From contig JAAZJL010000031.1 in the NCBI GenBank assembly GCA_012800355.1, positions 8,596-72,595 of the forward strand: a stretch of 64,000 nt of DNA, given 5' to 3'. The DNA is from Erysipelotrichia bacterium. Lineage in GTDB: Bacteria; Bacillota_I; Bacilli_A; Erysipelotrichales; Erysipelotrichaceae. Below, piece by piece: positions 9,178 to 54,137 of this stretch (within the stretch, counting starts at the first letter, position 1; the number at the start of each line of letters is the position of its first letter). A model generated the notes under the pieces. That model did no database searches. It saw only the letters and a program-made list of their open reading frames with translations, and had not been told where the DNA came from. The position numbers were made by a program, and so were the translations under genes.

Positions 9178-10890
9178 ATGGATTTAAAGAAGATTGTAAG
9201 TGCAATTGGTGCCATTGAAGAAAACAGCAATATTTCAAGTGAAGTGATTATTGATGCACTTAGTGAAGGACTAAAAACTGCTTATTATAGATTTATTGAT
9301 GTTAAAAAAGATTCAAATTTGCCTAAACCAAAATTAAGAGTTGAAGTTTCAAAAAAAGGTGAAATAAAACTATATCATATTAAAACTGTAGTAGAAGAAG
9401 TCAATGATGATGAATTAGAATTACAATTAAATGAAATAGTTGATCTTTATCCAGAAGCAAAAATTGGTGATGAAATTGAAAAAGAAGTTAACATTAAAAG
9501 CTTTGGACGAAAAGAAATTTCTAATCTGAAGAATGTTTTTACTCAAAAAATAAAAGAAGCTCACAAAAGAAACTTACTTGATAAATACAAAGACAAAGTT
9601 GATGATATTGTCAATGCTGTAGTTGAATCTGTTGAAGACAAGTTTGTCTTAGTTAAAATTGATGAATCTGATTTAGCATTATTAGCTCAAAGAGAACAAA
9701 TTCCTTATGAGAAGTATTATGATGGACAAAGACTTAAAGTTATCATCAAAGAAGTAAGCGATAAAACAAAAGGTGCACCAATTACTGTCTCTAGGGCTTC
9801 AAAAAATTTAGTTAAAAGATTATTTGAACAAACTGTTTCTGAAATATATGATGGTACAGTAGAAATAAAAGCAATTGCTAGAGTGGCAAATAGTAGAACC
9901 AAGATGGCAGTATATTCAAAAGATCCTAATGTTGATGCTATTGGTGCATGCATTGGTAATAGAGGCTCAAGAGTATCAGCAGTTATCTCAGAAATTAGAC
10001 AGCAAGATAACCTACTTACTCAAGAAAGCATTGATATCATTGAATGGTCTGATGATTATATTGAATATGTTAAAAATGTTATGAAGCCTGCAAATATTAT
10101 AGGTGTAATTCCTAAAGATGACATTATTCAAATTGTTGTTGAAGATGATCAATTATCATTAGCAATCGGAAAAAAAGGTATTAATGCTCAATTAGCTTCT
10201 GAATTATTAGCTAAAAAAGTTGATATCAAAACAGCAAGCGCTTTAGAAGAAGCTGGAATTGATTGGCAAACAGAAATGGCACAATATATTGCTAAAGAAC
10301 AAGAAAAACGCTTAAGAGAAGCTGAAAGAAAAGCTGCTGAACTTGCTAAAGCAGAGGCTGAAAGAAAAGCGAAAGAATTAGAACAATACTTGCAACAAAA
10401 AGCTTTAGAAACGGAAGAACAAACTAAATTAGATGATGAAAAATCTGAAAGTGTTGTTGATTCACATGATGAAGTAACAGAAAAGGATGAAATTAAAGAA
10501 AAAGAAGTTAAAGAAGCAGTAAAAGAACCAGAAAAAGAGAAAATTGAAGATGTTGTAAAAGAAACTGAGGAAGAAATTGAACTTCGTAAAGCTAAAATTG
10601 CTGCTAAAGCTGCTAAATATGTTTCAAAATTTGAAAGTTTAGCTGATGCAAGTAAAGAAGAAGATGATGATGAAAAAACAACTTCAAAAAGAAAAAGAAA
10701 AGAAACAAAAGAAGAAATTGAAGCTAGAGAAATCAGAGAAAAGATTGAAGAACTCAAAAAACAAGAATACGAAATCAAACCTGAATACACTGAGGAAGAG
10801 CTTGAAGAGTTTGAAAATCCAGATGAAGATTACTGGTATTATGATGACATAGACTTTGATGAATTCGATAAGTTTTATGATGAGGAATAA
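9178..10890 (+). CDS. nusA: Transcription termination/antitermination factor NusA with a long E/K-rich C-terminal extension
   Basis: 570 aa with an NTD, an S1 domain (DGQRLKVIIKEV) and KH1/KH2 domains (GACIGNRGSRV, LAIGKKGINAQLAS), followed by a roughly 220-aa low-complexity acidic/lysine tail. SD AGAGGGGA. Confidence 0.95.
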   Translation: MDLKKIVSAIGAIEENSNISSEVIIDALSEGLKTAYYRFIDVKKDSNLPKPKLRVEVSKKGEIKLYHIKTVVEEVNDDELELQLNEIVDLYPEAKIGDEIEKEVNIKSFGRKEISNLKNVFTQKIKEAHKRNLLDKYKDKVDDIVNAVVESVEDKFVLVKIDESDLALLAQREQIPYEKYYDGQRLKVIIKEVSDKTKGAPITVSRASKNLVKRLFEQTVSEIYDGTVEIKAIARVANSRTKMAVYSKDPNVDAIGACIGNRGSRVSAVISEIRQQDNLLTQESIDIIEWSDDYIEYVKNVMKPANIIGVIPKDDIIQIVVEDDQLSLAIGKKGINAQLASELLAKKVDIKTASALEEAGIDWQTEMAQYIAKEQEKRLREAERKAAELAKAEAERKAKELEQYLQQKALETEEQTKLDDEKSESVVDSHDEVTEKDEIKEKEVKEAVKEPEKEKIEDVVKETEEEIELRKAKIAAKAAKYVSKFESLADASKEEDDDEKTTSKRKRKETKEEIEAREIREKIEELKKQEYEIKPEYTEEELEEFENPDEDYWYYDDIDFDEFDKFYDEE

Positions 10891-10892
10891 AT

Positions 10893-11150
10893 TTGAAAAA
10901 AAGAAAAATTCCAATGAGAAAATGTATTATTACAAATGAACGTTTTCCAAAAAAAGAATTAATTAGAGTTGTAAGAACTCCAGAAAATGAAGTTGTTGTT
11001 GATTTAAGTGGAAAAATGAATGGCCGAGGTGCCTATTTAAAAAAAGATAAAGAAGTATTTGACTTAGCAAGAAGTAAAAATCTTCTTGCTAAGCAACTTG
11101 AATGTGAAGTAAAAGAAACTGTTTATGATGAATTAGATTCATTGTTATAA
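10893..11150 (+). CDS. ylxR: YlxR/RnpM family RNA-binding protein (DUF448)
   Basis: 85 aa with IPMRKCIITNERFPKKELIRVV...GRGAYL. The TTG start is taken from the ORF track and agrees with the Bacillus YlxR N-terminus. Conserved position between nusA and infB. Confidence 0.85.
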   Translation: MKKRKIPMRKCIITNERFPKKELIRVVRTPENEVVVDLSGKMNGRGAYLKKDKEVFDLARSKNLLAKQLECEVKETVYDELDSLL

Positions 11151-11173
11151 ATTAAATGAAAGGTGGTGCAGTT

Positions 11174-13000
11174 ATGACAAATAAAAAACCAAATAAAAGA
11201 AAAAGAAATAACAGCAATAAAAAGTACAATGGCAATTATACTAAAAAGAATCAAGTCGCAAAGGATTGTACTTATCAGGAAGGCATCACAGTTAAAGAAT
11301 TAGCTGAGAAGATTAATAAATCACCAGCTGATATTATTAAATTCTTATTTATGTTAGGTAAAATGTATACCGTTAATACATCTTTAGATGATGAAACAAT
11401 TGAATTAATTGCTTTAGAGTATGATATTAGTATAACTAAAGAAGAAATTGAAGATTCAGATTCTTTGGAAGACGATATTATTGATAAACCAGAAGAATTG
11501 GTGTCTAGAGCTCCAATCGTTACCATTATGGGACATGTTGACCATGGTAAAACGACCTTACTTGACTTTATAAGAAAAACAAATGTTACTGCTGGCGAAT
11601 TTGGTGGTATTACTCAACATATTGGTGCTTATCAAACAAATGTAAATGGTCAAAAGGTAACATTCTTAGATACTCCAGGACATGAGGCTTTTACAGCTAT
11701 GCGTTCTAGAGGAGCAAAAATGACTGATATTGTCGTTGTTATTGTAGCTGCTGATGATGGTGTTATGCCTCAAACAAAAGAAGCAATTGACCACGCAAGG
11801 GCTGCAGATGTACCTATTATTATTGCTATCAACAAAATTGATAAACATAATGCTAATGTTGATAAAGTCTATAATGAATTAGCTGACTATGGTTTGATAC
11901 CTGAAGAATGGGGCGGAGACACTATGTTTACAAAAATTAGTGCTAAATCTGGCGAAGGTGTTCAAACATTATTAGAAATGATTTTATTATTATCAGAAGT
12001 TTTAGAACTTAAAGCAAATCCTAAAAAATTGGCTACAGGTACTGTCGTGGAAGCAAAATTAGATAAAGGAAGAGGACCAGTTGCTACTTTGTTAGTACAA
12101 AATGGCACTCTTGATTCAAGTGACTGTTTAGTAGTTGGAACAGCATTCTGTAAAATTAGAAAAATGACTGATGATAAAGGTAAAGAGATTAAAACTGCAA
12201 AACCTTCAACACCAGTTGAAATAATTGGTTTATCAGATGTTCCTGAAGCAGGTGATCACTTTAAAGTTTTCGCTGATGAAAAACGTGCAAGAACTGTTGC
12301 AGATAGAAGAACCCAAACAAAAATTGAACTGGAAAGAAGAGCAATCGGTTTATCTCTTGATGATATAGCTACTAAAATTAAAGATGGTGATCTTAAACAA
12401 TTAGATATTATCATTAAAGCTGATGTTGCAGGTAGTGCTGAAGCAGTACAAAGTTCTATGGAAAAACTTTCTAATGAAGAAGTAAAGATTCGTGTATTAA
12501 GAGCTGCAGCAGGGGGAATAACTGAATCTGATGTTATGTTAGCAACTACATCAAATGCAATTATTTATGGTTTTAATGTTAGACCAAATGCGATAGTCAA
12601 AAGAATGGCAGAAGATAACAACATTTCTATCAGACTGCATAATATAATTTATAAAGCCTTAGAAGAATTAGAATCCATAATGAAAGGTATGTTAGCTCCT
12701 GTTTATGAAGAAGTTGTCTTAGGACAAGCTACAGTAAGACAGTTATTTAAAGTAAGTAGAATTGGCACGATTGCTGGTTGTATGGTTGATGATGGTATCA
12801 TAAAGAATAATTGTGGTGTTAGATTAATTAGAAATGGTGTTGTTATATACACTGGTAAATTAGGTTCACTACAACGCTTTAAAGATAATGTCAAAGAAGT
12901 TAAAGAAGGTTATGAGTGTGGTTTAACAATTGAAAGATATAATGACATTAAAGTTGACGATATAATTGAAGCTTTTGAAGATCAAGAAGTAACGGAGTAA
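11174..13000 (+). CDS. infB: Translation initiation factor IF-2
   Basis: G-domain motifs [14 protein letters not shown] and NKID. The start is placed at ATG 11174 behind SD AAGGTGG, rather than at the ORF-track start 11156. Confidence 0.95.
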
Positions 13001-15433: not shown

Positions 15434-16645
15434 ATGAAAAAAATTATCAAATTAATACTTATTGTTTCTTTTATATTTGCAACATTAATAGGTTGTGATA
15501 AAAAAGAAGTAAGTCTTGATCCAATTTCTGAAACACAGCTAGATGAGTATTTAGCAGGAAGAGACCCTTTCATAGAAGAAAACGACATTGAGGGCTATTA
15601 CAATTTAATTTCAAGAATTTGTGATAAAAAAACTGATGAAATAGTAGTTACATTTGAAGGTAGTTCTCTATTGATAGAGTACACTGCAAAATATCAGGTG
15701 AAATTATATGCTGTCGATCATGGTTGGAAAATAGAAAGTTTCGACATTTTAGAGAGTAATCAAAAAGCTAAAGAAATTACTCCTAGTATGTTGAAAAATC
15801 TGATTGAAGGTGTTGATAAAAATGTAACAGAAGGAATGAAAGGTTCATACTCAGTTGTATCGCAAGTAGTTGAAGATGGTGTAATTAAGTTTACATTAAG
15901 GTTTAACTCAAATGATGGAACCTATAGTGCTGAATATGAAGGTGAAGCTATTATAGAAGATGGTGAGCTTAAATTACAAAAAGTAGTAATCAATACAATA
16001 TCTGATGATTCAAAAAATGGAGAAGGAGAAACATTATTAAGCAATAATTATGATCCAAATAAAAAAGCTGCAGATTATGGTTATAAAGCTCCAGCTAAAC
16101 CACAAATTGATAGTGAAACGGTTAAAAATTTGGTTGAAGAGAATAAACCTGGTTTTAATGTAACAAAAGTTAAATATAAATCACAGACTGGTCCTATTCT
16201 TTTATATGAAATAACTCTTGAAAAACGTCACAAATATGTTAAAGATGTTGAAGAATGGCAATTTGGAGTATCTTTTATAGCTATGAAATATAATATTGTA
16301 GGTTCAGAAAAAATCAGTGCTACTACAAATTCAAATTTTGAAGGTGTTTATGTAAATAAAGCTAATGGAAGTTATATTATAATGCATGAAAATTGGAAAA
16401 TTGAATTACATGAATTCTATATTGCTGGTGGACAGTTAAAAGAAATTGTTTTAAATGAGTATCACAGTATTTCTAGCAGTAAAATGACTTGGAAAAACAG
16501 AAAGAAAATTTTTAAAAATGTTTGGACAGATGGAGCAGAACCTGAAAGTTTTGCTGTAAATATCTTATCAATAAATGAATTACAATTGAATGCAAATATA
16601 CTATCATCTAAATCAGGAGATGTTTTTGTAAAAGTTGAAGATTAA
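15434..16645 (+). CDS. Lipoprotein of unknown function
   Basis: 403 aa with signal peptide MKKIIKLILIVSFIFATLIGC and lipobox L-I-G-C. I recognise no domain in the mature part. Confidence 0.8.
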   Translation: MKKIIKLILIVSFIFATLIGCDKKEVSLDPISETQLDEYLAGRDPFIEENDIEGYYNLISRICDKKTDEIVVTFEGSSLLIEYTAKYQVKLYAVDHGWKIESFDILESNQKAKEITPSMLKNLIEGVDKNVTEGMKGSYSVVSQVVEDGVIKFTLRFNSNDGTYSAEYEGEAIIEDGELKLQKVVINTISDDSKNGEGETLLSNNYDPNKKAADYGYKAPAKPQIDSETVKNLVEENKPGFNVTKVKYKSQTGPILLYEITLEKRHKYVKDVEEWQFGVSFIAMKYNIVGSEKISATTNSNFEGVYVNKANGSYIIMHENWKIELHEFYIAGGQLKEIVLNEYHSISSSKMTWKNRKKIFKNVWTDGAEPESFAVNILSINELQLNANILSSKSGDVFVKVED

Positions 16646-16650
16646 TGAAT

Positions 16651-16684
16651 AAAAAGAATCTATTTATTTGATAGATTCTTTTTC
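16651..16684. terminator. Bidirectional terminator between the convergent lipoprotein and ttcA-like genes
   Basis: AAAAAGAATCTAT-TTATTTG-ATAGATTCTTTTT is a 9-bp stem flanked by an A-run and a T-run. It overlaps the last codons of the minus-strand gene. Confidence 0.8.
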
Positions 16685-17410
16685 TTTTGGTTTAAATATT
16701 TGTACTTTATTATAGTTTCTTAACATTAATTGAAAATTTTCTCGACATTTGTATGTTTTATATAGATTTTCTAGTATTTTTTTAATATTTTCGCGTTCTG
16801 TGTTACCATCGTTACTGCATTTTGAATCTACAATTGGAATTTGTAAATCCCTGATAGTTTTTGAGATATCATTTTCATAAGCATAGATAAGAGGTCTAAT
16901 TAGATTAATATCCATTCTTGATAAATACATATTTGGCAAAAATGTAGCTAATCTACCACCATGAATCATATTCATAAATAATGTTTCTACAGCGTCATCA
17001 GAATGATGTCCAAAAGCTAATTTATTACAACCATATTTTTTAGCAGCTTCAATAATTGCTCCTTTTCTAAGTTTTGAGCATAATGAACATTCAAATTTTC
17101 CTTCTTTTGTTAAATGAAGTTCCAAAATTTCTTTTATTTGAGTAGGATATATGATAATTTCTAAATTAAATTGTTTAAAATAATCAATTAATTCATCAAT
17201 GCTATTATCTCCAAATCCTAAATCACAATAAATAGGAATTAATTGATATTTCTTTTGTGAAAATCTTTGGTATAAATATAAACAGTACAAAAGAATAGAT
17301 GAGTCTTTACCACCTGAAACACCTACACAGATTTTATCTCCATCATTTATTAAATCATAATCATTATCAGCTTTTCTAAGACAGCCCAAAACTTTTTTAA
17401 TATTACTCAT
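16664..17410 (-). CDS. ttcA: TtcA-like PP-loop ATPase (tRNA 2-thiocytidine / thiolation family)
   Basis: PP-loop VGVSGGKDSS, the CSLCSKLRKG motif typical of TtcA, and HHSDDAVETLFMN. The start is placed at ATG 17410 (MSNIKKV) behind GGTGA. Confidence 0.75.
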   Translation of the reverse strand: MSNIKKVLGCLRKADNDYDLINDGDKICVGVSGGKDSSILLYCLYLYQRFSQKKYQLIPIYCDLGFGDNSIDELIDYFKQFNLEIIIYPTQIKEILELHLTKEGKFECSLCSKLRKGAIIEAAKKYGCNKLAFGHHSDDAVETLFMNMIHGGRLATFLPNMYLSRMDINLIRPLIYAYENDISKTIRDLQIPIVDSKCSNDGNTERENIKKILENLYKTYKCRENFQLMLRNYNKVQIFKPKEKESIK

Positions 17411-17475
17411 GATTTCACCATAAACATTATATCTCATTTTTTAGTAAAATATGCTATTATTTAGGGGGAATTTTT

Positions 17476-22844: not shown

Positions 22845-24494
22845 ATGTTATATAATTTATACATTAAAGACTTTATATTAATAGACGAATTAAACATTGA
22901 TTTCATGGATGATTTCAGTGTTTTTACCGGTGAAACAGGAGCGGGTAAAAGTATCTTTATTGATTGTATTGGTTGTTTAATTGGTGATCAATTAAATGTT
23001 TCAATGATTAGAAAAGATTGTGACAAAACAATTATTGAAGGAAGTTTTGAAATTGATAATAATTTAAAAACTAAACTTAAGGAAGCAGGTTATGATGATG
23101 AATCATTTATTGTCACAAGAGAGATAGGGCTAGATGGTAGAAGTATAACAAGGCTAAATCAAAGAAACACTACTTTATCCTTTGTAAAAGAGTGTTTAGA
23201 AGATTATGTTGATATTCACTGTCAGCATGATAATCAATATTTATTAAATGATAAATATCACCTAAATTTATTAGATCAGTATTGTCAATTTGATGATAAT
23301 CTCAATAATTTAGCTATTCTTTATAAAGAATACAATAATTTAGAAAAAGAATACGAGAAGTTAATTTCAACTACTTTTAATCAAGCACAACTGGAAATAA
23401 TTGAATATCAACTAAAAGAAATCGATAATTTAAATATTGATAATGTTGAAGAGGATATAGAAATTCAAAGTAAGCTAAAAGCAATTTCAGAATTTGAAAA
23501 GCAACAAAAAAATATTGAAGAGATAAAAGAATTATTTACTGAGGATGGAATATTAGATAAACTGTATTACTTTACAAAGTTATCTCATAATTTATCAAAT
23601 TTTGAAGATATTCAAACTAATATAGAAAATATTATTAATAGTTATTATTCAATAACAGATGATTATGAAACAATTTTAAGTAAACTTGACCTTAATACTA
23701 TATCAGCAGAAGAAATAGATTTCTTAAATAGCCGTTTATTTGATTTGCAGAGAATTAAACGAAAATATAATTCTTCTTTAAAAGAATTGTTAGAAATAAA
23801 AGAAGATTTAAGCAATCAATTAGAAGCATATAATAATAAAGAGTTTATTCTTTCCAAATTGTTAAAAGAAAAAGATGAAGCTTATAAAAAATATTATGAA
23901 TATGCTACAGAAATAAGTAAAATCAGAAAAAACAATGCTTTAAAATTACAAAAGGAAATTTTAAACGAATTAAAAGATTTATCTTTGGAAAATGCAAGAT
24001 TTGAAGTTTTATTTGAAGAAAATAAACCAACTTCTAAAGGTATTGATTTAGTTAAGTTTATGATATCTATGAATACTGGGATGCCACTTCAACCATTAAA
24101 TAAAGTTGCCTCAGGTGGTGAATTATCAAGATTAATGTTGGGATTAAAAGTAATTTTCGCTAAACTTCAAGGTACGAAATTGATTATATTTGATGAAATT
24201 GATGCTGGAGTAAGTGGTTATGTGGCTTTGAATATCGGTGTGAAAATGGCAAAATTAGCTAAAGATATTCAAGTGTTTAGTGTTACCCATTTACCAAGTG
24301 TGGCAGCATGTGGTAAATATCACTATTTAATCAGCAAGACACAAACTGAAAGAAGCACTAGTTCAACAGTAGAACAAATTAGTAAAGAGAAACGTATTGA
24401 ACAATTATCAATCTTATCAAGTTCAACTATTTCTAAAACTAGTTTAAGCGCTGCTGAAGAACTACTAGAAAAGGCCCAAAGACTATGCAGGTAG
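22845..24494 (+). CDS. recN: DNA repair protein RecN
   Basis: Walker A GETGAGKS, signature SGGELSR and Walker B IFDEIDAG. The start is moved to ATG 22845 behind SD AAAGGAG, because the ORF-track start 22791 overlaps tlyA. Confidence 0.93.
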   Translation: MLYNLYIKDFILIDELNIDFMDDFSVFTGETGAGKSIFIDCIGCLIGDQLNVSMIRKDCDKTIIEGSFEIDNNLKTKLKEAGYDDESFIVTREIGLDGRSITRLNQRNTTLSFVKECLEDYVDIHCQHDNQYLLNDKYHLNLLDQYCQFDDNLNNLAILYKEYNNLEKEYEKLISTTFNQAQLEIIEYQLKEIDNLNIDNVEEDIEIQSKLKAISEFEKQQKNIEEIKELFTEDGILDKLYYFTKLSHNLSNFEDIQTNIENIINSYYSITDDYETILSKLDLNTISAEEIDFLNSRLFDLQRIKRKYNSSLKELLEIKEDLSNQLEAYNNKEFILSKLLKEKDEAYKKYYEYATEISKIRKNNALKLQKEILNELKDLSLENARFEVLFEENKPTSKGIDLVKFMISMNTGMPLQPLNKVASGGELSRLMLGLKVIFAKLQGTKLIIFDEIDAGVSGYVALNIGVKMAKLAKDIQVFSVTHLPSVAACGKYHYLISKTQTERSTSSTVEQISKEKRIEQLSILSSSTISKTSLSAAEELLEKAQRLCR

Positions 24495-25393
24495 ATCACG
24501 CAATAGAAAATTACCTTTATCATATCCAGGTAATTGAACAAAAGCCTCTTTCAACAGTAAAATCATATAAAAACGATTTAAAGAAATATCAAAAATATCT
24601 TAAAGAGTTAAATATTATCAATATTGAAGAGGTAGATAGTTTAATATTATTGGATTTTATTACTTCACAAAATCATTTAGCGAAAAGTTCTCAAGCTCAC
24701 TTACTTACATCAATTAAAAATTTATATAATTACTTATTTATTAATCATAATATTAATAATGAAGTATGTAATCTTTCTATAAAAATGAGCAAAACTAACT
24801 TACCATCATTTCTATCGTTTGATGAAGTACAGTTAATCTTAAATAGTTTCGATGAAAATGAAGAAAAGGAATTATTTGAAAGATTAATGATTCAACTTAT
24901 TTTTGTAAGTGGAGCAAGAGTGTCTGAAGTCTGTGATTTAAATGTAAAACAAGTCAATATTACTCATAAATTATTGAGAATTATTGGTAAGGGAAATAAA
25001 GAAAGGATTGTCTTAATTGACAACGATACAGCTAAAAGATTGGAGTTCTATTATAGTAATATCCGTGTGAAATGGTTGAAAGGAAAAGACAGTAATTATT
25101 TTTTTGTAAATAATGTGGGAAAAAAAGTAAATAGACAATATATTTATAAAATTGTCAAAAGAAAACAACAGGAATTAGGTATAAAAAAAGAAATTTCACC
25201 ACATACATTTAGACATTCATTTGCTACCCATTTATTAGATAGTGAAGTTGATTTAAGAAGTGTTCAAGAACTTTTGGGTCATTCTGATATTTCAACAACT
25301 CAAATATATACTCATATTCAAAACAAACAACTAAAACAAGCTTATATGAAATTAAAAAGAGCTAACAAGGAGATTAAAGATGAAAAAATATAA
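24485..25393 (+). CDS. xerD: Tyrosine recombinase XerD (XerC/XerD family)
   Basis: 302 aa with catalytic residues in [22 protein letters not shown] and [14 protein letters not shown]. The xerD rather than xerC call rests on Bacillus-like synteny (ripX near drm/deoB). Confidence 0.85.
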
Positions 25394-26563: not shown

Positions 26564-27208
26564 ATGAAAGAAAAGAATGTATTACAATTTTATGTTCTTT
26601 GTAATCGATTAAAACATCTTATTCGAAGTGGTTGGATTGCTTGGAATGTAAAAAAAGAGAGAGTAGAGTCAGTAGCAGAACATATATATTCAACTCAAAT
26701 GTTAGCAATAGCCATGTATTCTGAGTTTAATTATGATATAGATTTAGAAAAAGTCTTAAAAATGTTGGCAATTCATGAATTAGAAGAAACAATAATTGGT
26801 GATTTTACACCGTTTCAACTAGATCAAGAAAAGAAACAAGAAATGGGTCACAAAGCCATTTTAAAGGCGTTACAGCCACTTTCTGACAAACAGCATTGGA
26901 TTGACTTAATAATGGAATTTGATGCTAGAAAAACAAAAGAAGCAGTTTTTGCTTATCAATGTGATAAATTGGAATGTGATTTACAAGCTAAACTATATGA
27001 TGAGGAAAACTACGTTGACTTAAATAACCAGGAGAATAATAAAACTATAGAAGATGAAAATGTAAAAGAATTACTAGAAAAAGGGTATAGTTGGTCTCAA
27101 ATGTGGATTAAAAATGATCTCAACAAAATAAACTTTGATGAAAATTTTAGAAAAGTTAACGAGTATGCTTTTTATAATAAAATCAGTGATTTAGAAGAAG
27201 ATAAGTAA
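26564..27208 (+). CDS. HD-superfamily hydrolase, YfbR-like 5'-(deoxy)nucleotidase family
   Basis: 214 aa with ESVAEHIYSTQ and LAIHELEETIIGD. The family's H...HD...D pattern is present, but the dyad reads H-E. Confidence 0.7.
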   Translation: MKEKNVLQFYVLCNRLKHLIRSGWIAWNVKKERVESVAEHIYSTQMLAIAMYSEFNYDIDLEKVLKMLAIHELEETIIGDFTPFQLDQEKKQEMGHKAILKALQPLSDKQHWIDLIMEFDARKTKEAVFAYQCDKLECDLQAKLYDEENYVDLNNQENNKTIEDENVKELLEKGYSWSQMWIKNDLNKINFDENFRKVNEYAFYNKISDLEEDK

Positions 27209-27601
27209 AGTAAACATTTAATTGTTAGATATTTCACAAGTTTATTATCTACCGTAAAATATCATAAAAGAATTATTTAATTATATTTTCTTAACATAAA
27301 TTTTTATTAATTATCTTCAATTGAATTTATTAATAATAAAATATGAGATGTATAAAGTTTAACAGATATTTATAATTGATTAATAAAGTATTAATGATTT
27401 AAATATTAATCTTTAGATTTAAGTATTTCTTTGTAATTTAAAATTAAATGCAAAAAAGTTAATAATGGTGAATAAAATGATGTTTTTGCATTCTATAAAC
27501 TGTAAGTAAGGCATACGTTAATATTAATTAGCTCATATATGGTCAATATTTCATCTTATATAACTCATTTCAATTAAATTTATCATATTATTAACCTATA
27601 A

Positions 27602-27629
27602 AAATAACATAATATACATTATGCGAAGT
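27602..27629. other. dif: dif site (XerC/XerD chromosome-dimer resolution site)
   Basis: AAATAACATAA-TATACA-TTATGCGAAGT. Its reverse complement ACTTCGCATAA-TGTATA-TTATGTTATTT matches E. coli dif at 23/28 positions (central 6/6) and B. subtilis dif at 21/28. It lies at the gene-orientation switch, in a 442-bp non-coding convergent spacer. Confidence 0.8.
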
Positions 27630-27641
27630 TAAATCAATAAG

Positions 27642-27668
27642 AAAAAGTCATTATTTATGACTTTTTTT
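27642..27668. terminator. Bidirectional rho-independent terminator closing the nrnA-dnaE-TCS operon, 12 nt from dif
   Basis: AAAAAGTCAT-TATTT-ATGACTTTTT is a stem of up to 10 bp with an A-run on one side and T7 on the other. The stop codon of the minus-strand gene lies inside it. Confidence 0.8.
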
Positions 27669-27992
27669 CTTTGTTTTACTCTCTTCATATTTTATAAAAT
27701 TATAGAAATTTATTAGAATTACCATTAATTCCATTGTTATAAAGCTTATAATTAATCCTAAAATATTCAAAAATCCATTATTAAATATGAATAATGATAC
27801 TGCTACAACAATATATATTACTATTAAAAAATTATAATCTTCATGTCCTTTATAATTTGATTTACACTTCAAACAACTTATATTATTTTTTTCTTTTTTC
27901 TTTTCTAAATTTGATCCACAGTTTGGACATTTATTCATAAATTTTAATTCATAAAATTGTTTAAATTTATTTTTCTTTAACATTTTATTCAC
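27651..27992 (-). CDS. Zinc-ribbon membrane protein of unknown function
   Basis: 113 aa with CPNC...(13)...CLKC followed by two hydrophobic helices. It starts 12 nt after the histidine kinase stop. The start codon is uncertain (GTG 27992 or ATG 27983). Confidence 0.6.
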   Translation of the reverse strand: MNKMLKKNKFKQFYELKFMNKCPNCGSNLEKKKEKNNISCLKCKSNYKGHEDYNFLIVIYIVVAVSLFIFNNGFLNILGLIISFITMELMVILINFYNFIKYEESKTKKKSHK

Positions 27993-28004
27993 TTCTACTC
28001 TTTT

Positions 28005-29462
28005 TTATAATATTTCTACTTTATCTAAATCAATTGTTGGAATTTCAAAATAGAAAGTTGAACCTTTATCTATTTTAGAAATAACTCCATATTTACAGTT
28101 ATATGTTTCTAAAATTGCTCTACAGATGGCTAATCCTAGGCCAGAACCACTTTTAGATCTTTGATAATGTTTATCAATTTTATAATATCTATCCCATATA
28201 TAAGGTAGTGATTCCTCATCAATTCCAGTACCGTGATCTGTTACTTCTACGCGGATATAGTCTTTATTTTTTAAATAACCCTTTAATATTATTTTTTTAT
28301 CTTCACCATAATGTTTTAAAGCATTATTGACAAAATTGTTTAAAACTTCTTGAATTTTATTGGCATCTCCCATAGCAATCAATTCAGGTTCACAATTTAA
28401 TTCTATTGTGACACCTTCTAATGCTGCTAGAGGTTCAAATCTATAATAACAATTATATAATTGCTCAGTTAAATCAAATGACTCAGAATCAACTGAAATT
28501 GCTCCTGCTTGAAGTTTAGATAAATTCAGCATATCACTAACTAAAGTATTTAAGCTATCGGTTTCATTAATGATGATATCTAAATGTTCTTCTCTTTTTT
28601 CCTTGTTGTCACCAGAGATATCTTTAATCATTTCAGCATATGCTTTAATCATTGTCAGCGGTGTTTTTAAGTCATGAGAAACATTGGCCATCAGCTCATT
28701 TCTATACTCTTCCACTTTAGATATTTCTTTCGCTGCTAAATCAATAGTATCAGCTAACTCTTGAACTTCATTGATGCCAGTATCTTCAAATTCTAACTCA
28801 TAATTTCCATAAGTAAGTTTATTGGCTTCCTCTTTAATTCTAATGATGGGTTGAGAAATTATTTTTGAGAAAAGAAGCGATATTAAAAGAGACAATGATA
28901 AGACAATTAATGAAATTAATATAAATTGATTTTGAATTGTTTTTTTGATTATATTGATAGATTGTAAGGTAATATTGCTAATAACATAGTATTCTTGATC
29001 ATTTACTAAAATTTTCTTTCCATATACCATTATTTCTTGATCAGACAATTCAATAAAATCACCTTGTAGGTATATTTCATCCTTGTCAGTATTTTCTAAA
29101 ACTTCAATAAATCTTTCATTGACAACGGAATTATTATAAATTGCACAGCCTGAATTACCTAATGCATCAAAACCACTAACGGTAGTTGAATTGGTACTAT
29201 CAAAAACAATTACACAAGCATTATTATTCATCGTTAATGAATATAATAAATAATTTTTCTCCTTCATTTCTGCTTCGCTGAAGAATATATCAGAAACATT
29301 GTTGGTAAATGTTTTAATTTCTCTTTTAAGCGTTCCAATATAAAAAGGTTCAAGTAAAATTAACTGGAAAAATTGCAACAACAAAAGAATACTTAACGCA
29401 AAAAGCACGAAGTATGTCCATGATTTAAATCCTAAAGAGTTTATAAACTTATTCTTTTTCAA
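28005..29462 (-). CDS. Sensor histidine kinase (two TM segments, extracytoplasmic loop, HAMP, HisKA, HATPase)
   Basis: 485 aa with H-box SHDLKTPLT, N box NNALKH and G boxes DHGTGI and GSGLGLAI. It overlaps the response regulator gene by 14 nt. Confidence 0.9.
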   Translation of the reverse strand: MKKNKFINSLGFKSWTYFVLFALSILLLLQFFQLILLEPFYIGTLKREIKTFTNNVSDIFFSEAEMKEKNYLLYSLTMNNNACVIVFDSTNSTTVSGFDALGNSGCAIYNNSVVNERFIEVLENTDKDEIYLQGDFIELSDQEIMVYGKKILVNDQEYYVISNITLQSINIIKKTIQNQFILISLIVLSLSLLISLLFSKIISQPIIRIKEEANKLTYGNYELEFEDTGINEVQELADTIDLAAKEISKVEEYRNELMANVSHDLKTPLTMIKAYAEMIKDISGDNKEKREEHLDIIINETDSLNTLVSDMLNLSKLQAGAISVDSESFDLTEQLYNCYYRFEPLAALEGVTIELNCEPELIAMGDANKIQEVLNNFVNNALKHYGEDKKIILKGYLKNKDYIRVEVTDHGTGIDEESLPYIWDRYYKIDKHYQRSKSGSGLGLAICRAILETYNCKYGVISKIDKGSTFYFEIPTIDLDKVEIL

Positions 29463-51896: not shown

Positions 51897-54137
51897 CTAC
51901 TCTTCATCTGTTCTAACTAGGACATCTCTAGGTTTAGAACCCTTTGAACCTGAAATTATTCCTTCTTGTTCTAGAGCATCAATAAATTTTGCTGCTCTAG
52001 GAAATCCAAGTGAATATCTTCTTTGAAGTCCACTAGCAGAAACAGTCTTTTGAGTCATAACCCATGACTTGATATTACCATATAACGGATCATTATTACA
52101 TGAACTTACATTAGTATCAAAATCATCTCCTTTATCATCAATCATAAAAATATCTTCATATTGTGGAATATAACCACTATCAGATAAGTACGAGACAACT
52201 CTAGAAATTTCTTGATTAGAAACATAGACACCTTGAATTCTTTGTTGTGATGTTGAACCAGATTCCATAAATAACATATCACCGTTGTTTAATAATGATT
52301 CAGCACCAATAGTGTCTAATATAGTTCTTGAGTCATATGATGAAGCAACTTTAAAGGCAATTCTTGAAGGAATATTAGCTTTAATAACTCCAGTAATTAC
52401 ATCTGTTGAAGGTCTTTGAGTAGCTAAAATTAAATATATTCCTGCAGCTCTTGCTTTAGCTGCTAACCTTTGAATATAAATTTCAATTTCTTTTCTATGA
52501 GTTATCATTAAATCTGATAATTCATCAATGATACATACTATATTACACATTTTTTGAGTTGTTTTCTCATTGGCATTATAGTCTTTGATACTATTTACAT
52601 GAATTGAGGCAAACTTTTCATAACGTTCATCCATAAGTACACAAAGTTTCTTTAAAGCATCACTAGCCTTCTCATTTTCGGAAATAATTGGACAAGCTAA
52701 GTGAGGAATCTCTTTATATTTAGTAAATTCAACTTTTTTAGGATCTACTAATACCAATTTAACCTCACTTGGTCTAGAACTCATAAGTAGCATTAAAATA
52801 ATACTATTAATACATACTGATTTACCCATTCCAGTAGCTCCAGCAATTAATAAATGAGGAAATTTATCAATTGATGCATAAACATTGTTGCCTGTTATAT
52901 CTTTTCCTAAAGCAACAGTAAGTGGATTCTTTTTATATTCTGGTTTAATATTTTTTAATAACTCTGACAATCTAACTGCTGTTCTTTCTTCATTAGGTAT
53001 TTCAAATCCAACAGCAGACTTGCCTGGAATAGGAGCTACTATTCTAAGGTCTGTTACTGCTAAAGACATTTTGATATTTTCTTCAATAGAAGCATATTTT
53101 CTAATATTGAAATTTCCAATAGGTGAAACTTCAAATTGAGTTACTGAAGGACCAATATTAACTCCTTCAAGCTTACTTTCATAACCAAAACTTTCTAAGA
53201 CCTCTGCTAATTCTTCCCACTTAACTTTGGCATTTTCATTATTAGTAGAACTTTTCTTACTGATTGAATAAGTATCTAATTTATCAATACCAGGAAGCTT
53301 ATAATTTTTCTCATTATAAATAATCCTTTGTGATGGTGCAGATAAATCAAATGATAATACCTCAATTGGTTTACTATCAATAGTTTCAGGTTTAGAGACG
53401 ATTTCTTTAGCTACAGATACTATTTCCTGCTTTTCAAATTCTTTGTCTTTGCTTCTTAAATCGGTTGAAACAAACAAACTTTTTTCTTTTTCGAGTTGCT
53501 TTTTCCTTTCTTTTTCTTTTTGAGCTTCTTCTCTTCTTTTTGCTCTTTCTTCTTGTTTTTGTTTTTTATAATTAGAAAAATCAGCTTTTACTTGATCGAA
53601 GTCTTTATCATTGAAATCAAAATGAATGATTACTGATAAAAGTATCAAACCTGTTTCAACAATATAAATTCCCATATAACCTAAAAAAGATGAAAATAAA
53701 CTATAAAAGAAAGTGCCGATTAAACCACCATCATTAGTGATTACTCCATTGAAAATTTTCTTTGAGTTTTCAAAAAAATTATTAATTAATTCAAAGCCGA
53801 TAGATTTATCTTTTTGTATTGATAAAAATATTAGAACTGAAAGTAAAATAGCGACAGCAGAAACAATATATTTATAACCGAATGAAAATTTAAAAATGAT
53901 ACATAATCCAGCTATAATCATTGTTGCAAACGAAATAAACCAACATTTACCAAGGAAGTAGCGTGAACATTTAAATAAAAAATCTCCTAAGAAAGCTGTT
54001 TCTTCATAAAGCAAACCAATTAAACCAAGTGAAATTAGTATTACTCCATATGTAATACGTATTACTGTTAATTCTTCTTTTGAATACCTTCTTCCATTTT
54101 TAATAATCTTAGTATTGGTTTTTCTTTTTCTAGTCAT
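51897..54137 (-). CDS. ftsK: DNA translocase FtsK/SpoIIIE
   Basis: 746 aa with N-terminal TM helices, a K/E-rich linker, motor motifs GATGMGKS and IIDELSDLM, and a C-terminal gamma winged helix (SASGLQRRYSLGFPRAAKFIDALEQEGII). Confidence 0.95.
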   Translation of the reverse strand: MTRKRKTNTKIIKNGRRYSKEELTVIRITYGVILISLGLIGLLYEETAFLGDFLFKCSRYFLGKCWFISFATMIIAGLCIIFKFSFGYKYIVSAVAILLSVLIFLSIQKDKSIGFELINNFFENSKKIFNGVITNDGGLIGTFFYSLFSSFLGYMGIYIVETGLILLSVIIHFDFNDKDFDQVKADFSNYKKQKQEERAKRREEAQKEKERKKQLEKEKSLFVSTDLRSKDKEFEKQEIVSVAKEIVSKPETIDSKPIEVLSFDLSAPSQRIIYNEKNYKLPGIDKLDTYSISKKSSTNNENAKVKWEELAEVLESFGYESKLEGVNIGPSVTQFEVSPIGNFNIRKYASIEENIKMSLAVTDLRIVAPIPGKSAVGFEIPNEERTAVRLSELLKNIKPEYKKNPLTVALGKDITGNNVYASIDKFPHLLIAGATGMGKSVCINSIILMLLMSSRPSEVKLVLVDPKKVEFTKYKEIPHLACPIISENEKASDALKKLCVLMDERYEKFASIHVNSIKDYNANEKTTQKMCNIVCIIDELSDLMITHRKEIEIYIQRLAAKARAAGIYLILATQRPSTDVITGVIKANIPSRIAFKVASSYDSRTILDTIGAESLLNNGDMLFMESGSTSQQRIQGVYVSNQEISRVVSYLSDSGYIPQYEDIFMIDDKGDDFDTNVSSCNNDPLYGNIKSWVMTQKTVSASGLQRRYSLGFPRAAKFIDALEQEGIISGSKGSKPRDVLVRTDEE

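Follow-up and report, generated by a model that had tools for sequence, protein, structure and literature searches.

The 28-bp sequence at positions 27602-27629 of the window (the whole 64-kb stretch of DNA analysed here) is in all probability the dif site on the chromosome of an uncultured member of the Erysipelotrichia (Bacillota, ~28% GC), located at its replication terminus; we put the probability of this reading at about 0.92. A preliminary description of the window had already read the sequence as a XerC/XerD dif, and this reading is supported by weight matrix, skew and conservation, with recombination activity as a prediction from sequence. The strongest test, one not among the checks suggested earlier, lies in its conservation, since the putative dif forms a 28-bp island that is perfectly conserved in three related species and whose flanks diverge immediately.

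The plus strand of 27602-27629 reads AAATAACATAATATACATTATGCGAAGT and its reverse complement ACTTCGCATAA-TGTATA-TTATGTTATTT, exactly as had been quoted in the preliminary description. The minus strand thus has the 11-6-11 layout of dif, two imperfectly inverted 11-bp arms on either side of a 6-bp centre. Its left arm ACTTCGCATAA (27619-27629), which shares 8 of 11 bases with the left arms of both E. coli and B. subtilis dif, would by analogy with these sites be the XerC/CodV-type binding arm. The right arm TTATGTTATTT (27602-27612) agrees with the XerD arm of E. coli at 9 of 11 positions, faces the xer gene and is the likely XerD/RipX-type binding arm. Strand exchange would occur, as in the known systems, at the centre TGTATA (27613-27618), identical to that of E. 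coli dif (6/6). Compared as inverted repeats, the arms have 7 of 11 bases in common; their inner parts, CATAAT and ATTATG, are of low complexity and form the inner inverted repeat CATAAT-N4-ATTATG. Folding of the 28-bp site itself revealed no significant hairpin.

Scripted comparison with experimentally verified dif sites reproduced the earlier counts of 23/28 identities to E. coli dif (left arm 8, centre 6/6, XerD arm 9/11) and 21/28 to B. subtilis dif, including the outer ACTTC. Both reference sequences used in the preliminary description are those printed by Kono et al. 2011 (PMC3025954). The nearest entry in the accessible part of the supplementary list of that study is the predicted dif of Lactobacillus casei, ACTTCGCATAATATATATTATGTAAACT (24/28, counted by hand). 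A weight matrix was built from 16 distinct published Firmicutes dif sites taken from the same supplement, excluding those Clostridium botulinum predictions that lie 140-175 degrees off the skew switch. The site scored 22.97 bits against this matrix, the next best 28-mer on either strand of the window 7.46 bits, and the maximum in 100 Markov-1 simulations of the window averaged 9.8 bits with a largest value of 18.0. The matrix scan proposed earlier thus returned the site as the unique best match within the 64-kb window. Its score is below the range of the 16 matrix-building sites (27.9-40.5 bits) owing to the ATTT, in place of AACT, at the end of the outer XerD arm. In a genome of a few Mb, about one match of ~23 bits could arise by chance, so that the score alone is no proof of whole-genome uniqueness. 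The site is present in a single copy in the 64-kb window and in each related locus of 6-21 kb. No other match to the 28-mer at ≤3 mismatches was found in the window, and 100 dinucleotide-preserving shuffles yielded no such match. The loose dif pattern TAACATAATNNNNATTATGNNAAGT matched at least 120 metagenome contigs of 26-65% GC, and the commonest 28-mer among the matches listed, ACTTCGCATAATGTATATTATGTTAAAT, is identical to the site at 26 of 28 positions. Being only two positions off this sequence, the site represents a very canonical form of dif.

The surroundings of the site carry the signature of a replication terminus, namely a skew switch, a flip of gene orientation and the longest convergent gap at the same place. 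In the window (~28% GC), GC skew is ~+0.2 over 1-27 kb and ~-0.2 over 28-64 kb. Calculated base by base, the cumulative G-C curve has its maximum 91 bp to the left of the site (27511) and the cumulative A-T curve 17 bp to the right (27646); the extremum of cumulative GC skew, suggested earlier as a check, hence falls next to the site within the 64-kb window. With one exception on each side, plus-strand genes extend to 27208 and minus-strand genes begin at 27651, in agreement with the claim that the site lies where gene orientation flips. The gap between them (27209-27650, 442 bp, 17% GC) is indeed the sole long convergent gap, the other two measuring 18 and 208 bp. Within the 64-kb window, the site therefore occupies the terminal location expected of dif.

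The site is surrounded by housekeeping genes. Those to the left are recG, polC, nusA, infB, recN, the Xer-type recombinase gene, deoB and a gene for an HD-domain hydrolase; those to the right include dnaE, smc, ftsK and the genes of a two-component system. The terminus region is unusually rich in genes of replication, repair and segregation (recG, polC, recN, xerD-like, dnaE, smc, ftsY-like and ftsK), all of which are co-oriented with replication. The ftsY-like gene was named by its size, its position and its counterpart with SRP54 domains in the related locus L145. A 403-aa ORF on the plus strand (15434-16645), the position of which is conserved in contigs L001 and L002, gave no Pfam match and adjoins a PP-loop ATPase gene (16664-17437), the left arm's sole gene on the minus strand.

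Immediately to the right of the site, an A-U-rich hairpin with a 12-bp stem flanked by A and T runs was revealed by folding at 27640-27668 (minus strand), overlapping the stop codon and 3' end of the ORF at 27651-27992. Its folding energy is -10.4 kcal/mol on the minus strand (z -3.2) and -14.7 kcal/mol on the plus strand (z -5.9). A consensus terminator scan did not call this hairpin, since its stem contains only two G-C pairs. The minus-strand hairpin folds in all four species compared (the window and its relatives L012, L013 and L014), and the plus-strand fold in three of them, failing in L012, which has C-A mismatches in place of G-U pairs. The preliminary description had spoken of a bidirectional terminator 12 nt to the right that shields dif. 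This is borne out only in part, as the hairpin is conserved on the minus strand in all four species and folds on the plus strand in three; the distance is corrected to 10-11 nt, as the stem starts at 27640. The most plausible reading of the hairpin is that of an intrinsic-terminator-like structure ending the minus-strand operon, bidirectional only sometimes, and it may or may not shield dif. The ORF at 27651-27992 (minus strand) encodes a 113-aa CxxC zinc-ribbon/membrane protein (TIGR04104, 25 bits, below cut-off); it closes the right replichore as its last gene, adjoins dif in four species and has orthologues of 110-112 aa in L012, L013 and L014.

A scan of species-representative genomes placed the window in uncultured Erysipelotrichia and yielded three species with synteny and contigs of sufficient length, L012 (453-kb contig JBMNIN010000003.1), L013 and L014, whose Xer proteins are 81-83% identical to that of the window. 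The 28-mer is identical at 28/28 positions in all three, and the alignment breaks at the first base outside it on both sides; the site is thus conserved at the orthologous position while its flanks diverge, and eight further lineages carry variants of it. GC skew flips at the site in the window and in L012, L013 and L014. On the XerC-arm side of dif, these genomes keep the same hairpin and the zinc-ribbon ORF of 110-113 aa. The XerD-arm side differs: the window has a 393-bp spacer and L012 a stretch of 183 bp of unrelated DNA; in L013 (12739-13353) and L014 (11377-12000), a SUFU-family (PF05076) gene ends a few bases from the site. Contigs from same-strain biogas-fermenter metagenomes that carry the same recombinase (L001-L010) are uninformative on conservation, being identical to the window across the spacer.

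More distant Xer orthologues, 41-61% identical, were obtained by homologue search in eight loci (L140, L143, L144, L141, L145, L142, L146 and L016). In every one of them the top matrix match is a variant of the site with 1-5 base changes, on the same strand relative to xer and at a switch of gene orientation. Skew flips at the variant dif in seven of the eight, L141 (54% GC) being essentially without skew. The variants read ACTTCGCATAA-TATATA-TTATGTTATTT in L144, ACTTCGCATAA-TATATA-TTATGTTAGAT in L143, ACTTCGCATAA-TCTATA-TTATGTTATTA in L140, TCTTCGCATAA-TGTATA-TTATGTTACTT in L141 (12913-12940), ACTTCGTATAA-TGTATA-TTATGTTATTT in L145, ACTTCGCATAA-TGTATA-TTATGTAATTT in L142 (Breznakia sp. PF5-3, GCA_029504715.1), ACTTCGCATAA-TGTGTA-TTATGTAATAT in L146 and ACTTCGCATAA-TGTATG-TTATACGATTT in L016 (6185-6212). 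Changes are found mostly in the central region, where TATATA, TCTATA, TGTGTA and TGTATG occur besides TGTATA, and in the outer XerD arm; hardly any affect the left arm or the inner bases of either arm.

Several of these loci have features of their own. The right arm TTATACGATTT of L016 (Erysipelotrichaceae MAG RUG12927) shares 8/11 bases with the left arm, a higher symmetry than the other lineages show. L141 agrees with the window in gene order (recN-xer-deoB ... two-component system-dnaE) and nearly so in its dif sequence, yet its GC content is 54% compared with 26-37% in the other lineages, a large compositional shift inside one syntenic group. In L140 gene orientation flips ahead of dif, already at 9465/9520, and the minus-strand genes for NusG_II-domain and FAD-binding proteins that lie between xer and dif (region 9520-12764) may, together with small ORFs, represent an insertion or inversion next to dif. 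The genes to the right of dif in L140 include one for a Phage_P4_cII-domain protein.

The variable AT-rich spacer between the last plus-strand gene and dif (27209-27601, 393 bp, 16.5% GC) showed no significant similarity in relatives. Its repeats proved to be merely AT-rich noise, and a decayed SUFU-family gene of the kind present in L013 and L014 was rejected after a negative tblastn search. A structured RNA near the site was rejected as well, as no Rfam match at E≤1 was obtained in 26900-28100. In four independent metagenome assemblies of the same strain (L002, L005, L006 and L007), contig ends map to ~27267-27348 of the window, inside the spacer. These breaks are probably a coverage or assembly effect of DNA with 16.5% GC; they may also reflect strain-level variation next to dif.

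The gene at 24485-25393 (plus strand) encodes a tyrosine recombinase of 302 aa with the domains PF00589 and PF02899. It scored 265.5 bits with the XerD model TIGR02225 (cut-off 329.6), 248.4 bits with the XerC model TIGR02224 (cut-off 335), 263.4 bits with the subfamily model NF001399 (cut-off 279) and 112 bits with the XerS model (cut-off 267), and its best match among solved structures is E. coli XerD (1a0p, E 1.3e-39). As XerD is the best model and yet the score is below the equivalog cut-off, we call the gene XerD-like. The preliminary description had reported xerD 2.2 kb from the site: the distance is correct (the gene ends 2208 bp to the left), whereas the name goes too far for a protein below both the XerD and the XerC equivalog cut-offs. 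No second tyrosine recombinase, of XerC type or other, is encoded in the 64-kb window, and the homologue search for Xer listed orthologues alone, without a paralogue.

An FtsK/SpoIIIE-family translocase with alpha, motor and gamma domains is encoded at 51897-54137 (minus strand), as judged by profile matches (PF01580, 176 bits; PF17854, 74 bits; FtsK_gamma PF09397, 72.2 bits). The gamma domain occupies residues 682-741 of 746, and the gene starts 24.3 kb right of the site, which bears out the earlier claim of an ftsK with gamma domain 24 kb away. The L. lactis KOPS motif GAAGAAG occurs 30 times in the window pointing towards the site and twice pointing away, counted over both arms. This polarity is confounded with the coding strand (Glu codons), since nearly all genes are co-oriented with replication. 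The E. coli KOPS GGGNAGGG is absent from the window, and the B. subtilis SRS occurs once.

The mechanism in which the predicted dif would take part can be outlined by analogy with the established E. coli XerCD/dif and B. subtilis CodV-RipX/dif systems (review PMC5357621). Homologous recombination that joins sister chromosomes into a dimer would bring two dif copies to the closing septum, where FtsK would pump DNA towards dif, guided by strand-polar motifs. The XerD-type recombinase would bind the arm TTATGTTATTT and a partner recombinase the arm ACTTCGCATAA. The gamma domain of FtsK would activate the first pair of strand exchanges at the borders of the 6-bp TGTATA core, and the partner recombinase would then resolve the Holliday junction into two monomers. 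The pairing of arms and proteins, the order of exchange, the dependence on FtsK and the existence of the partner recombinase are all suggested by the same analogy.

The predicted dif lies downstream of the XerD-like gene in 12 of 12 Erysipelotrichales lineages (the window, L012, L013, L014, L016 and L140-L146), at distances of 10 bp to 5.2 kb and in constant relative orientation, the XerD arm being nearest to the gene. From the xer stop codon to dif the distance is 10 bp in L016, 21 bp in L145, ~0.9 kb in L142 and L146, 2.0-2.5 kb in the window, L012-L014 and L141, ~3.15 kb in L143 and L144, and 5.2 kb in L140. As a rough control, with available sequence averaging 4.8 kb within 5 kb of the site, an Xer-like gene was present on 8 of 120 unrelated dif-bearing metagenome contigs among the matches listed; six of these eight, likewise among the matches listed, have low GC and the same arrangement. 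Linkage of recombinase and dif is a possible hallmark of single-recombinase systems (review PMC5357621), and it is found here over 2.2 kb in the window and over distances from 10 bp up to 5.2 kb in the 11 related loci. It is conceivable, although we consider it unlikely, that the Erysipelotrichales possess a conserved xer-dif module with a divergent XerD-like gene, in which a single Xer of classical size acts on a classical dif. If true, such an arrangement would be intermediate between the XerCD and the XerS/XerH arrangements. In a weaker version, the linkage could be selected for co-inheritance or for terminus-timed expression even with a XerC partner.

Among the explanations that compete with a conventional XerC/XerD dif, binding of both arms by a homotetramer of the single linked Xer, comparable to XerS/difSL, XerH/difH and archaeal XerA, draws on this constant arrangement in 12 of 12 lineages, on its low frequency in the control contigs (just 8/120 among the matches listed), on recombinase scores below both the XerD and the XerC equivalog cut-offs and on the window encoding no second recombinase. 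We nevertheless regard this explanation as improbable. The site is a canonical 28-bp dif with a 6-bp core, and its outer arms differ clearly (ACTTCG and AAATAA); this asymmetry persists from lineage to lineage, which would be expected if the arms are bound by two different proteins. With 302 aa the recombinase is XerD-sized; it best matches XerD models and the XerD structure, and with 112 bits falls short of the XerS cut-off of 267. Neither the atypical site nor the large recombinase of XerS/difSL and XerH/difH is found here. Moreover, XerC and XerD have been described as ancient proteins with a wide distribution in Firmicutes (PMC8136486), a protein annotated as XerC exists in E. rhusiopathiae (PMC4968806), and the linkage could be plain conserved gene order at the terminus.

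The two other alternatives are far less probable still. That a functionless, near-palindromic AT-rich sequence arose by chance might be suspected in so AT-rich a spacer (17% GC), given the low complexity of the inner arms and the lack of a significant hairpin in the site, but the shuffles (0/100 at ≤3 mismatches) and a matrix score above all 100 simulations argue against it, and the conservation data refute it: perfect conservation of 28 bp, unalignable flanks and persistence down to 41% Xer identity are incompatible with neutral sequence. The diverged flanks and the protein identity of 81-83% speak against recent transfer of one DNA segment, which could have rescued the chance explanation. 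A dif look-alike, either the operator of a dimeric transcription factor or the attachment site of a mobile element's integrase, has an equally negligible chance of being correct. The repeat CATAAT-N4-ATTATG would suit a dimeric DNA-binding protein, and the DNA on the left side, either a spacer or a SUFU-family gene, varies between species; against this, conservation spans the asymmetric outer bases of the dif arms and ends exactly at 28 bp. Promoter-like sites are at background (12 found, 12.0 expected), and an operator between two convergent gene ends would have no gene to control. An integrated element at dif was rejected, the 393-bp spacer containing no second degenerate dif-like junction and the 7.5-bit runner-up lying elsewhere in the window, and so was a phage or other element carrying the site, as the exact 28-mer occurs on no viral contig.

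Taken as a chromosomal dif, the site resembles that of the B. subtilis CodV-RipX system and the Firmicutes sites of Kono et al. in its 28-bp 11-6-11 layout, the outer ACTTC, the inner ATAA/TTATG and its location at the skew switch. It differs from B. subtilis dif in the end of the outer XerD arm (ATTT here, AACT there) and in the centre, which is TGTATA as in E. coli instead of TATATA. The order of the recombinase gene followed by phosphopentomutase (deoB/drm) presumably mirrors the ripX-drm order of B. subtilis. The tight linkage of xer to dif sets the present locus apart from B. subtilis, where to our knowledge the xer gene is not tightly linked to dif. With the E. coli dif/XerC-XerD/FtsK system the locus shares 23/28 positions including the full centre, the match to the XerD structure and the gamma domain of FtsK; it differs in the outer XerC arm (ACTT here, GGTG in E. 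coli) and in the zero count of GGGNAGGG in the window. The C-terminal RQ-QQ of XerD is an FtsK-contact motif (PMC5357621), of which only the first two positions fall inside the 1a0p alignment, where LRQLH of E. coli is aligned to LKQAY here. The XerS/difSL systems of streptococci and lactococci and the XerH/difH systems of Helicobacter and Campylobacter likewise have the recombinase gene beside or near dif at the terminus. They differ from the canonical 28-bp dif and 302-aa XerD-like protein described here, difSL being 31 bp long with an 11-bp centre and XerS and XerH ~355 aa in size (PMC5357621).

The site is thus a dif of a well-known kind in a lineage where we found none described; no entry for Erysipelotrichia was found in the accessible part of the dif list of Kono et al. 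2011 (PMC3025954). It adds nothing to the understanding of Xer/dif itself. It marks the terminus and the predicted dimer-resolution site of an uncultured Erysipelotrichia lineage of biogas reactors, and is useful when metagenome-assembled genomes are to be oriented or closed, when replichores are analysed and when elements that integrate at dif are sought. The order-wide linkage of xer and dif, its single slightly unusual feature, provides a modest lead to the question whether one recombinase or two act in this clade.
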